Source: Paraspadella gotoi (Eukaryota > Animalia > Chaetognatha). From it: DNA of 64,000 bases. Of the stretch, positions 1-64,000 are shown one piece after another (within the stretch, counting starts at the first letter, position 1; the number at the start of each line of letters is the position of its first letter). The position numbers were made by a program, and so were the translations under genes. The notes beneath the pieces were generated by a model. That model was not told where the DNA came from and made no database searches. It worked only from the letters and a program-made list of their open reading frames with translations. Location of the stretch: NCBI GenBank assembly GCA_051294375.1, contig CM119268.1:1819486-1883485 (forward strand), given 5' to 3'.

Positions 1-1229
1 ATCTTGCAAAATCCGGATATCAGAGCAGTTTCCTTCGTTGGCTCAGATCAGGTAAATTTTAGTGAAAAACACAAATTACGTATTAAAGACAAAATGACGT
101 ATTACCATCGTCAACTGTTACACCAGGCCGGTCAGTACATTTACGAAGAAGGCGCCAAAAGGGGCAAGCGCGTTCAATCCAACATGGGCGCTAAAAATCA
201 CGGGGTAATCATGCCGGACGCCAACAAAGAAAACACGCTCAACCAACTCGTCGGGGCCGCTTTCGGCGCCGCCGGTCAGCGCTGCATGGCGCTATCGACG
301 GCTATTTTCGTGGGCAAGGCGAAAGACTGGATTCCGGAATTGGTGGAGCGGGCCCAAAAGCTCAAAGGTAATTATTAAACTTATTAAACTTCTCTACGAT
401 GTCAGTTAAGGAACATTTTATTTTATTTTTTCAATCGTGATCGCAGTCAATGCCGGACACGAACCGGGCGCCGATTTGGGTCCCGTAATTTCCCCCGAAG
501 CAAAGAATCGAATCTGCGATTTGATTCAGTCCGGCGCCAACGAGGGCGCCGAGGTCGTCCTCGACGGCAGGACCATCTCCGTTCCAGGGTAAAGCCGCTG
601 CCCGTTCAAAGCATTTTCGATTCTCACTCTGAACTCGAAGATGAACACAAAAAATTTGGGTTTACAGATACGAAAGCGGAAACTTTGTGGGGCCGACCGT
701 GTTGACGAACGTCAAGCCAAACATGGAGTGTTATCAGGAAGAAATCTTCGGGCCCGTGCTCGTCACTTTGGAGGCGGAAACGCTGGACGAGGCCGTCGAC
801 ATCATTAATAGGTTAGTAACGCTAAGCATTTAATAAGAATGAAACATTTTCCCCAAAAAAATATTTTATTTTCAGTAACCGTTACGGCAACGGGACCGCC
901 ATCTTCACCACCAACGGAGCCACGGCTCGCAAGTTCACCAACGACATCGACGTGGGTCAAGTGGGCATCAACGTCCCCATCCCCGTTCCGCTCCCGATGT
1001 TCTCCTTCACGGGGTCGAGGTAATTATCGAGTTGAGAGAAGAATTGATTCCTTCTTCATTTTCCTCTTTCCTCTTTCCCTCCCTCAGAGGCTCTTTCCGA
1101 GGAGACGCCAATTTTTACGGCAAGGGCGCCATCCAGTTTTACACCCAAGTCAAGACTGTGACGTCGCAGTGGAAAGAGGAGGACGTCACGCACACCAAGG
1201 CGGCCGTCAGCATGCCCGTCTTGCAGTAG
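1..1229 (+). CDS. ALDH6A1: Methylmalonate-semialdehyde dehydrogenase (3' part, 5'-truncated by window; 5 introns visible)
   Basis: Spliced translation gives [76 protein letters not shown] introns at about 52-126, 368-446, 589-668, 812-875 and 1020-1087. Confidence 0.95.
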
Positions 1230-1594
1230 ACGGACTCGTCTTCTTCGACGAGAAAAAAAAATGTTATTTGTGTTACAAATTTCTCAAGTTTTTTTTTTTT
1301 TATAACTTCAACAATAACTTGTTCGTTAGTGATTCAAATTTATTTCGCGATATTTTACAGCCAGTCAAAACTTTTACTGACAAGTCAATTTTAGTTTAAT
1401 TTTTAGTTTCCCTCTTTATTAATAATTTAACTTAATTCGTCCGTATTGACAGCTTCTTTATACATGCCGCTTTTTTCGTTTTAAGTTCGTTATCCTTTAT
1501 GAAAAATCGTGATCCCTGGTAAGCCGAGACCCGGAAACAATCACACGACTATCCCAACTGTTGTTCACCCACAGACACCCCCCCCAAAAAAAAA

Positions 1595-2491
1595 ATGCTT
1601 AAAAAGTCGTCGGATGCGTCGGCGTCCAAATCGCGGTCTCACTCTTCACGATTTCACTCCAATGCGTCGCGACCTTCTAACGTCCGAACCAATTCTCAGT
1701 CCGCGAATCCTGTCCAAAACAAAGAAGGTTGGAAAAAAGTAATTAAATACATATATGCAAACATACATGTTATTTACATGTAATTAAAATTTATTCCGTA
1801 GTTGACATTTTTCAACTCCCTTGTCCCACAGCTTCCTCCTCCGCTCGTCGTCGTAAGGAGACGACTGGCGAGGACGTGCCTCCCTCGACGGAGGCGCCGC
1901 CCGTGCCCCCTCGCCAGCCAGTCTCCCGAGGCAAGTTGGCCGAGCACTCCTTCCTCACAGACGTTGCCGACGTTAAAGAGATGGAAACGGGGCTTTTGTC
2001 TCTGCTCGACGATTTTCATTCGGGAAAGCTACAGGTACAGGGGTGAGGATTTAATTAGAGAATTATTATTTTTATTATTATTATTATTCAGGAGTTTTTT
2101 TCTTAGTTGTAATGTTTTTCTTCTTGACTTAAGGCATTCGGCTCGGACGAAGCTTTCAAGAAAATGGATCAAGTTCGAGACCAGCAAGAGCAACTCGCCA
2201 AAATGCATTTTAAATTAGGTGATTATTGTTTAACTTAAAAAAAAAAGATTTTATCACCGGTTAAATTTGCTTTAACTCGGCGCAGATCACGACGCGACCG
2301 CCGACGGTTCGGTCGGCAGCAACTCCTCGACCAAAAAGGGAATCTCGGACGAAAACATGGAGGAGCTCCTCGGTCGATTGCACGCCCTCTCTCAATCCAT
2401 CCAGGATCTCCATCCATCCTCCGCTTCTCAAACGGCCACGCCCAACGTCGGAAACGAACACAACGGCCAAGACGGCACCAATGCCGGATAG
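1595..2491 (+). CDS. CCDC28: Coiled-coil domain-containing protein 28-like (4 exons)
   Basis: Spliced frame reads [75 protein letters not shown], the CCDC28A/B signature. Start codon less certain. Confidence 0.85.
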
Positions 2492-2695
2492 CGATTCTTT
2501 TTTTTCTTTTCCACTCGCTCTCGTCGTATTTGACATTCTAGTCAATTTTTCTTCTTTTTTCTTTATTAGTTATTAGTTTCTGTTATTACTGCATCCGAAC
2601 AGAAAATGTTGTGATCGAAACGCGCTCGGAACTCCCGATATCCTGGGCGTCGAACGAGACTATGAATCGGACTCGAACATTCGTTCACGGCAAAA

Positions 2696-63100: not shown

Positions 63101-63342
63101 TTGCTCGCTCGCGGATAGAGGCCGCAACGCGTCATGCGTTGCGTAAGCTCGGAAAAAGCGCGAGTCGCGTGATTCGAAGGGACGCGGCGATCTGGCTCGG
63201 TTACGAGGCCGCAGCCATCGCTTTCCATCCCAATCGGGGCCAATTTGGTCGATGTCTAAAGGCAGTTCGTCACCGGCAGAGAATGTACGCGGCTTCGATG
63301 AGAAAAGATTTCCAGTTCATTCGCTCGCTTTCAGTTTTATGA
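60157..63342 (+). CDS. TERT: Telomerase reverse transcriptase, single exon
   Basis: TEN/GQ (W..LH.RLGD..VQLTG), CP, QFP-like, T motif (FFYVTE..FFRKNVW), motif 1 LRFVPK, motif 2 LRPI, motif A KIDVDDCY, motif C IDDYL, motif E WCG. Confidence 0.93.
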   Translation: MEPKLTLLMKNLGLNLIPLEDFLSKRAPGFSIVNPSRDSTDFRAFVSSLFVHDDETLGAFPIPAEGRPKKSSSTMSLVREVAQRLANKGAENVLAAVSAVNWVPGVGGKFQRRVGDGLGSLSFFSHVRWAALHARLGDEAFALLLTDRSMFALAGGGTYLVQLTGKSTSRAISCRGRSARGRRRPARSRSSTTPAVKKPRLEVSVASANSGQKRKEEKLKLLKERRKAFRQSVASTTPRIPRYDGKKRLPRSSIMYATDLRERLCLFGRDRKAICDDSDAGEKLAVHVWFCPRLDAVGPLGDAHHPRCLYSKPSEKWEEKSLASINGLPEAVKKAFLAKVGPLCRSAMVNFKRLHVPSVLARFCPLPDDFRGWKWRALTDRVSSLHTPAVKVFLLVRFILLAVVPAEMWGSQETRRLFLRKLKRFVTMGRTDVMSLGYVMYGVKISGFDWTSSLTLSVAKEDAVAKFYWWVLSSLSCDILRSFFYVTEMDHRPRSLLFFRKNVWRRLRGVALNNYVLSENFQKLSPGVAEEKLAREESLGAASLRFVPKQKSLRPILRMKNSSDPNSDVNAKLADAFKFLKMSKSRRPSSIGVGIFGRSDFLKKYLSFRETADRRGRGVYFMVKIDVDDCYQTIDQKKLCRIIDGIGEYHSEMIMADQRFDYVTLTGNRPKVNRASVTILKKASEESPSFGELANLAHERDRFYAAIIEDRCFSGCKAETSQICRVLKDHITNTLIKVESDYYLMSRGLAAGCVVSSLCCNLYYGDLENTSPPAGDAENCLVVREIDDYLLIADRMETAQRFLTSFSRGFPEYSMYVKRSKTLTNFPFASRCYEAPALDSSCARVYPAVARSRDCRSTADSWFPWCGFLFDDRTLEVRFDFARYDWRRPRFMRQSISVSYGHRWSTKILVDAVKSNVKNLGWPLCFAPPVNSRRVRLRNFLEFLVLVLRKLYTLDRELRPFSARLHCDPETFVDIVVTISRVARSRIEAATRHALRKLGKSASRVIRRDAAIWLGYEAAAIAFHPNRGQFGRCLKAVRHRQRMYAASMRKDFQFIRSLSVL

Positions 63343-63840
63343 TTCCTTTGAACTGTGATTAAACCTTTGCAAATAGACAAACAATAAACGAATATTATAC
63401 ATCAGTAAATAATGAGTCTCGAGATAATCTTCTTCACAGAATTGTCTCCATCGCACTTACCGGTGACTTTACTAAAAATTCTTCAGTAATCAGTAACCTA
63501 TGTCTATGATCTTGTTTTATGGTATTTTTGCTATTTCATCACCTTAGTTCTAGTATTTCAACATTTCTGGAATAAATTTCAGCATGATTTTTTCGCGATG
63601 CTTGCCCCGTTGATCAATATTTCAAAACGTTTGGTTAAATTCGAACTTGTTATGCTTCACCTTTTGTTGCAGCCGCCCATCGCTCGAAGTAAGTCGGGGT
63701 GTTTCAAACTTTAAACCAACATCAGCTTCCGCCCTTGAACAAATTATTAACGAACAAACTTTAGAAGAAGACTTTTAATAATTTAATTCGACTCGGTCTT
63801 CTACCCCGATTCTTCTGTTCTCGTTATAGAATTGGAAACC

Positions 63841-64000
63841 ATGTCGGAAACCTTCGCTTACCCGCCCGTCCGTCGCGACGATACCGTCGTCGAGACTCTC
63901 CACGATCGAGTCGTTCCCGACCCTTACCGCTGGCTGGAGGATCCCGACTCGAGCGAGACCAAAGCTTTCGTCGACGCCCAGAACGATCTGACACGGCCCT
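63841..64000 (+). CDS. PREP: Prolyl oligopeptidase (5' part, truncated by window)
   Basis: [41 protein letters not shown]. Confidence 0.92.

Follow-up and report, generated by a model that had tools for sequence, protein, structure and literature searches.

A one-way array of housekeeping genes in the chaetognath Paraspadella gotoi, probably a chain of several leader-resolved operons

A stretch of 64,000 nucleotides from the chaetognath Paraspadella gotoi (GenBank assembly GCA_051294375.1, contig CM119268.1, positions 1,819,486 to 1,883,485 of the forward strand; hereafter the window, numbered from its first letter) carries 34 gene models, 32 of which lie on the plus strand. We consider it probable that this one-way array of housekeeping genes represents a chain of several operons whose messages are resolved by a trans-spliced leader, and not one unit of 32 genes; the number of operons would lie between 3 and about a dozen. 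The genes share their orientation and are closely spaced, their models are cis-spliced, one leader junction occurs at the ribosomal protein gene RPL17, and in five spacers upstream RNA reaches close to the candidate acceptor AG of the next gene. An earlier reading of the letters alone (the sequence-only reading) had proposed trans-splicing of either a long polycistronic domain or a chain of co-oriented operons. The chain fits what we find. A single 32-gene unit of the kinetoplastid kind is not demonstrated, as two minus-strand genes, lying head-to-head with their plus-strand neighbors across 198 and 220 nt, break up the run.

If orientations were independent, a split of 32 to 2 would have a binomial probability of 6.9e-8. 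The strand bias was also examined independently of the gene models, by comparing six-frame stop-to-stop open reading frames (ORFs) of at least 55 amino acids with Pfam at E<=1e-3; N-containing ORFs were left out of this set, except that one plus-strand ORF was scanned after its N letters had been trimmed. The minus strand (300 of 300 ORFs scanned) gave one match, a Scramblase domain at 47691-48128, and the plus strand (299 of 303 ORFs and the trimmed one) gave matches in 28 separate genes, so that Pfam alone yields a split of 28:1 (p=1.1e-7). Four plus-strand genes have no match at this threshold, namely the 996-aa cramped-like ORF and the models at 13932-14402, 32588-33340 and 35303-37495. 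With these four models and a second minus-strand gene known from its RNA joints, the scan arrives at the same total of 32 of 34 that had been counted from the sequence alone. The description of a unidirectional array of 32 nevertheless holds for the co-orientation only and not for a single run, since the plus-strand genes form three runs of 16, 8 and 8 (blocks A, B and C in Table 1) parted by the two minus-strand genes. Likewise, the probability of about 1e-7 suggested earlier stands under independence but rises once neighbors are allowed to be correlated. Same-strand neighbors make up 29 of the 33 pairs, for which p is 1.4e-4 at a same-strand rate of 0.57, a rate derived here from published P. 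gotoi operon counts, and 0.18 at a rate of 0.8. At the former rate, the window is more co-oriented than randomly placed short operons would yield.

The window is also dense, at 1.9 kb per gene, about six times the P. gotoi average of approximately 12 kb per gene (257 Mb, 21,072 genes; PMC12460157). As had been claimed, its genes continue past both edges: a 5450-nt RNA contig extends about 4.2 kb beyond position 1 on the left, and the right edge truncates the last gene, a prolyl oligopeptidase. Could tandem duplication, or errors of gene calling or assembly, have produced the array? It is true that the plus-strand model at 32588-33340 is unsupported, that the SAM-domain gene is broken and that a minus-strand gene belonging to no Pfam family could escape the scan. 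However, the unbiased Pfam scan gave 28:1, the gene families are unrelated, a repeat search of the window found no long duplicated segment (the sequence-only reading had called the genes non-paralogous), and RNA contigs of at least 99% identity join neighbors in the same order. An artefact is therefore highly improbable and largely refuted already. Rfam (at the gathering score) and ARAGORN gave no matches in the window.

All transcript evidence belongs to a single run from a single study (X1, which holds 75% of the sampled words), in the form of unstranded contigs mapped to positions 1-19700 and 11900-31850. We take X1 for RNA because its contigs skip GT..AG introns; they match at 99% or better, splice at modelled introns and join neighbors in genomic order. 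Two other runs (X2 and X3) yielded short chance pieces only, and the absence of X1 cover at 19226-20557, of which a filter may be the cause, was not used as evidence.

At RPL17, a U-rich tract (27234-27253, plus strand) ends in an AG at 27252-27253, 43 nt upstream of the ATG, and an X1 contig carries 17 loose letters joined exactly ahead of position 27254, directly after this AG. These letters do not occur in the window, even allowing 3 mismatches, and they are identical to the 17-nt 3' end of the spliced leader SL2.0 and of several form-2 variants (PMC2481426, Table 3); the chance of such a match is about 1e-9 per trial. Since the loose letters equal a published leader and are absent from the window, trans-splicing of a chaetognath leader occurs at the RPL17 locus, as had been predicted for an AG just before a start codon, and the leader by itself marks the animal as a chaetognath. 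Two AGs that the sequence-only reading had named fared differently. At 8793 a contig does start, but no leader stands among the matches listed, and at about 30096 no leader appears among the loose ends listed for the mapped stretch 11900-31850. The former AG (8792-8793) precedes the CRAMP1-like ORF, whose contig begins on its G; a five-codon upstream frame (8794-8811) follows directly after the AG, and the CRAMP1 frame itself begins at 8816.

A second junction concerns the contig shared by MCTS1 and NDC1, in which 29 foreign letters are joined at the MCTS1 acceptor AG (14600). The window does not contain these letters, and they match no leader in Table 3 of PMC2481426. They could be an exon to the left of the window, in which case the precursor would run across eight genes and at least 14.6 kb; it is equally possible that they belong to a different type of leader, to a chimeric contig or to a second copy. 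Contigs also continue into at least 255 foreign letters after 17211, and foreign letters stand before 13972; paralogues, another haplotype or low-complexity matches are the candidate sources.

Among the rows listed, unbroken contigs span four of the 15 block A spacers: those from ABCB7 to the GNAT gene and from there to the SAM-domain gene (contig 6418-8751), from MCTS1 to NDC1 (14600-17202), and from the GDSL esterase to the short-chain dehydrogenase, the last being the longest at 605 nt. Five contigs stop 16, 31, 42, 58 and 74 nt short of the next gene's candidate AG, and a sixth appears to run past it; acceptors other than that of RPL17 are candidates chosen here. Because contig ends lie near or past the next AG, gaps that include the untranslated regions (UTRs) are far below the stop-to-start gaps.

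The latter number 29 between plus-strand neighbors and range from 112 to 762 nt (median 272), 14 of them below 250 nt and 15 at or above it. All of the eleven short gaps singled out by the sequence-only reading reproduce, ten with starts chosen here, but they belong to the short half only; moreover, the 165-nt gap holds only with the ATG at 35303, the in-frame ATG at 35189 giving 51. The published closeness rule of 250 bp, which uses UTR-bearing models, is satisfied at 14 of the 29 spacers when measured from stop to start, and RNA cover adds three more (272, 406 and 566 nt). In 27 of the 29 spacers T outnumbers A, with a skew of +0.17 as compared with +0.15 in the 45 cis-introns of the models used (median length 79 nt), so that the earlier remark on T-rich, intron-like spacers is upheld. 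The skew is about 0 at three of the four strand-switch gaps and -0.40 within the minus-strand scramblase gene; T-richness tracks the transcribed strand. No shared spacer motif other than U-richness emerged from a count of 16 motifs and the repeat search, and a strong donor-like motif is lacking in 20 of the 29 spacers.

In the chain of operons that we favor, a few promoters would each drive a precursor through several genes. Cleavage a few tens of bases short of the next U-rich AG would form the 3' end of each message, and trans-splicing would add the leader at the AG just before each start codon, as is seen at RPL17 and presumed for the other genes. Most spacers would hold no promoter; blocks B and C would start at the two head-to-head gaps (198 and 220 nt), and further transcription starts may lie in a few of the longer spacers (500-760 nt).

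A mechanism of this kind is already known, and it is the scale that is new. Of the 21,072 genes of P. gotoi, 10,197 receive a leader by trans-splicing and 18% count as operonic by the 250-bp rule; 3,565 genes lie in validated operons, the longest operon holds nine genes, and operons favor metabolism, ribosomal, ubiquitin and proteasome genes (PMC12460157). By family, the genes of the window fit these classes, which agrees with the housekeeping-type content ascribed to it earlier. Chaetognaths have no operon-specific leader (PMC2481426, PMC12460157), and in a two-gene operon of Spadella cephaloptera the acceptor of the second gene lies only 3 bases beyond the poly(A) site of the first (PMC2481426). 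Chaetognath operons resemble the window in the 3' end of the form-2 leader, in their head-to-tail housekeeping genes (ribosomal protein and ubiquitin pathway genes included) and in the very short gap between a message and the next acceptor. Their reported maximum, however, is nine genes, as against a run of at least 16 genes over 28 kb here, in a window where 32 of 34 genes share a strand over 64 kb. The 16-gene run may exceed that maximum.

Alternatively, each block might be one transcription unit (of at least 16, 8 and at least 8 genes), or a plus-strand unit might read through both minus-strand genes, chaetognath chromosomes then containing long directional polycistronic domains. We regard this as possible but unlikely. 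It is consistent with the modest size of the largest gap between plus-strand neighbors (762 nt), with the bridging of spacers of up to 605 nt and with contig ends that adjoin the next AG, and the 29 foreign letters at MCTS1, if they come from a left exon, would require the precursor to be at least 14.6 kb long; these letters have, however, several duller explanations. A similar picture comes from a 158-kb Spadella bacterial artificial chromosome (BAC), whose genes beyond the two-gene operon are likewise noted as clustered and alike in orientation (PMC2481426). The 24 rows of its Table S5 comprise 19 plus, 4 minus and 1 strandless; three of the minus rows are labelled transposon and the fourth, unlabelled, adjoins them, and every one of the 14 genes that have a name and a strand and are not transposons is plus (p=1.2e-4). 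This is a hint only, because the BAC was chosen for co-oriented clusters and the table is restricted to SwissProt-matched models. It also counts against one unit per block that published operons reach nine genes in chaetognaths and seven or nine in tunicates, and that bridging was seen, among the rows listed, for only four of the 15 block A spacers. We also considered whether the minus-strand scramblase gene is nested in an intron of the next plus-strand gene, and rejected this: alignments of relatives to the latter begin at about 49190, and a first exon farther away did not turn up. Since the scramblase gene is not nested, no read-through across it is evidenced. Long one-way gene domains may nonetheless be a chaetognath trait. 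No description of them in chaetognaths was found in the literature, subscription papers being mostly outside the search; the words "strand" and "orientation" have zero occurrences in the main text of PMC12460157, as has "operon" in bioRxiv 10.1101/2025.03.14.643333.

Several observations weigh against the chain of operons. First, many trans-spliced P. gotoi genes are non-operonic (10,197 trans-spliced as against 3,565 in validated operons); because thousands of such genes lie outside operons, the leader alone does not prove one, and because the spacer preceding RPL17 measures 661 nt, this gene could have its own promoter. Second, the RPL17 junction is the single one among the loose ends listed, and none of the six listed for 1-19700 is a known leader. 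Third, one 928-nt intron is covered by a contig with a depth of 11.5, so that the bridging of any spacer could stem from precursor or from a background of DNA, and unstranded contigs show neither a single transcript, true ends nor promoter number. Finally, ordinary 3' UTRs would make the spacers U-rich as well, and the 250-bp rule applied to stop-to-start distance alone gives runs of only 3 genes. A further alternative is that most genes are transcribed singly, each from a compact promoter, and that trans-splicing merely takes a short outron off many of the transcripts, the co-orientation being a by-product of local compaction or of past operons. With this explanation it would be natural that 15 of the 29 spacers are at least 250 nt long and that most trans-spliced P. 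gotoi genes are non-operonic (PMC12460157); judging by the two head-to-head gaps (198 and 220 nt), some 200 nt may suffice for a promoter region, and the bridging of spacers may be background. It would leave the 29 of 33 same-strand neighbors unexplained, however, and it sits poorly with the five contigs of upstream RNA that end 16-74 nt short of the next AG and with the operons established in the phylum (PMC2481426, PMC12460157). Single-gene transcription is, in our judgment, improbable.

Among other trans-splicing lineages, tunicates have operons of up to seven genes in Ciona and nine in Oikopleura (PMC7986045, PMC11067885). Those of Oikopleura dioica and Ciona intestinalis resemble the window in their head-to-tail order, their loosely related housekeeping genes and their short intercistronic distances; one leader class serves every position, and that leader differs from the chaetognath one. 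Nematode SL2 operons, with an intercistronic distance near 110 nt (PMC7986045), likewise begin as a polycistronic precursor into which, as proposed here, trans-splicing at U-rich AGs introduces the separations, but nematodes possess a dedicated downstream leader and chaetognaths have no operon-specific one. The window further resembles kinetoplastid clusters in its long one-strand runs of unrelated genes and in leader addition as seen at RPL17. Those clusters contain tens to hundreds of almost intron-free genes, every message of which is trans-spliced. The window departs from them in its GT..AG RNA joints and 45 model introns, and in that its strand switches twice in 64 kb. Its longest run, open on the left, holds at least 16 genes; kinetoplastid clusters run over tens of genes unswitched.

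Table 1. Features of the window, in order of position. Names introduced by "presumably" or a like word are our own assignments.
Feature	Positions	Strand	Evidence and remarks
Block A	1..28198	+	16 co-oriented genes, open at left edge; Pfam, models, RNA joints
Aldehyde dehydrogenase, 3' part	1..1229	+	PF00171; 5 RNA joints; presumably ALDH6A1-like
CCDC28	1595..2491	+	PF13270; 3 RNA joints
ABCB7-like half transporter	2696..6660	+	Pfam; best single-stretch PDB match ABCB7; RNA
GNAT acetyltransferase, single exon	7020..7883	+	Pfam; RNA contig 6418-8751
SAM-domain gene, frame-broken, start uncertain	8116..8684	+	PF00536 in two frames; RNA
Cramped-like (CRAMP1) 996-aa ORF, single exon	8816..11806	+	Atlas 0.87, lead only; RNA contig 8793-12122
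UCH family deubiquitinase	12213..13365	+	PF01088, PF18031; RNA joints; taken to be UCHL5-like
156-aa ORF	13932..14402	+	Weak F5/8-like match (E=0.056); RNA contigs over its bin
MCTS1, single exon	14616..15167	+	Profile and relatives' matches; acceptor AG 14599-14600
NDC1, single exon	15346..16953	+	PF09531; shares contig 14600-17202 with MCTS1
USP39	17226..19200	+	PDB match; RNA joints
GNL2	19349..21650	+	Pfam; relatives' transcripts
GDSL esterase	21871..22861	+	Pfam; same RNA contig as next gene; presumably IAH1-like
Short-chain dehydrogenase	23467..24515	+	PF00106; RNA; presumably carbonyl-reductase-like
Acyl-CoA thioesterase, start uncertain	24745..26635	+	PF03061; RNA joints
RPL17, last gene of block A, leader-spliced	27297..28198	+	PF00237; RNA joint and loose end
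Spliced gene, probably small membrane protein	28442..29956	-	4 minus-strand RNA joints; ends approximate, by inference
Block B	30155..45821	+	8 co-oriented genes; Pfam, models; RNA for first gene only
Cytidylyltransferase	30155..31825	+	PF01467; RNA joint; taken to be PCYT1-like
250-aa ORF, weakest model	32588..33340	+	ORF alone; no match of any kind
Ankyrin/SOCS-box gene, single exon	33533..35137	+	Pfam
Cys/His-rich gene, last exon 475 aa	35303..37495	+	No Pfam match; upstream in-frame ATG 35189
34-nt inverted repeat pair	37624..38001		310 nt apart, 94% complementary, within 699-nt spacer
3'-5' exonuclease, single exon	38195..40594	+	PF01612; presumably EXD3-like
CD36-family gene	40809..42785	+	PF01130
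Glycosyltransferase family 8 gene	43301..44830	+	PF01501
COMMD9, single exon	45168..45821	+	PF07258, PF20923
Phospholipid scramblase, start inferred	46235..48975	-	PF03803
Block C	49196..64000	+	8 co-oriented genes, open at right edge; Pfam, models
Glycosyltransferase family 4 gene	49196..51105	+	PF00953; relatives align from about 49190; taken to be DPAGT1-like
Beta-alanine-activating enzyme (ACSF4/AASDH)	51398..54747	+	PF00501, PF13570
TIMM9, single exon	54887..55156	+	Pfam and database match
HVSL-family gene	55269..56299	+	PF09749; presumably USB1
WD40 gene	56694..58130	+	WD40 match; presumably PAK1IP1-like
GTF2A1 (TFIIA alpha/beta), single exon	58295..59599	+	PF03153
Telomerase reverse transcriptase (TERT), 1061 aa, single exon	60157..63342	+	PF12009, PF00078
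Prolyl oligopeptidase, 5' part	63841..64000	+	PF02897

Some of these features deserve comment. The automatic, codon-trained models of CRAMP1, USP39, the WD40 gene and the genes that we take to be DPAGT1-like and PCYT1-like have doubtful inner exons. The SAM-domain gene is covered by an RNA contig of identical sequence with zero gaps, and it is likely a transcribed pseudogene carried within the array. Transcript relatives were found for GNL2 (nine at 83-85%, the best named match reaching 72%) and for MCTS1 (two at 75-78%, the best named match about 60%), and one of the MCTS1 relatives is a contig of 2559 nt, close to the combined length of MCTS1 and NDC1. A scan of metagenome contigs for MCTS1 found none, and the 79 GNL2 loci are distant, the leader fragment being absent within the first 400 nt of either end.

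The first minus-strand gene has three CT..AC joints and one CT..GC joint in the RNA and no Pfam match; the CT..GC joint corresponds to a minus-strand intron with a GC donor at 29606-29674. By eye we take its product to be CD225-like, and its full reading frame could not be assembled from models and RNA. Within the scramblase gene, E-box-like words (CACGTG/CATGTG) are clustered at 47397-47570, with none in the 29 spacers. The inverted repeat at 37624-38001 is, as judged from its letters, likely a small mobile element that lengthens its spacer. Animal TERT genes usually carry many introns; here TERT is a single exon, and other long single-exon genes are CRAMP1-like, NDC1, the exonuclease and GTF2A1. 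Because several long genes consist of single exons, heavy intron loss is suggested.

Animal operons have so far been described as short units of few genes. One could go further and argue that block A is a single operon of at least 16 genes and at least 28 kb, that such domains recur across the phylum, and that they represent a part-way convergence on trypanosome-like transcription of housekeeping genes, telomerase included; we hold this to be doubtful, though conceivable. The main text of PMC12460157 states that the assembly, annotation, Iso-Seq and ATAC data are deposited. Should transcription start sites prove many, the window would be an ordinary, though dense, chaetognath operon cluster. 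Should one promoter serve at least 16 genes, or operons be aligned over tens of kilobases, distance-based operon calling would be splitting real units, and the array would show how far an animal can move towards post-transcriptional control of its housekeeping genes.

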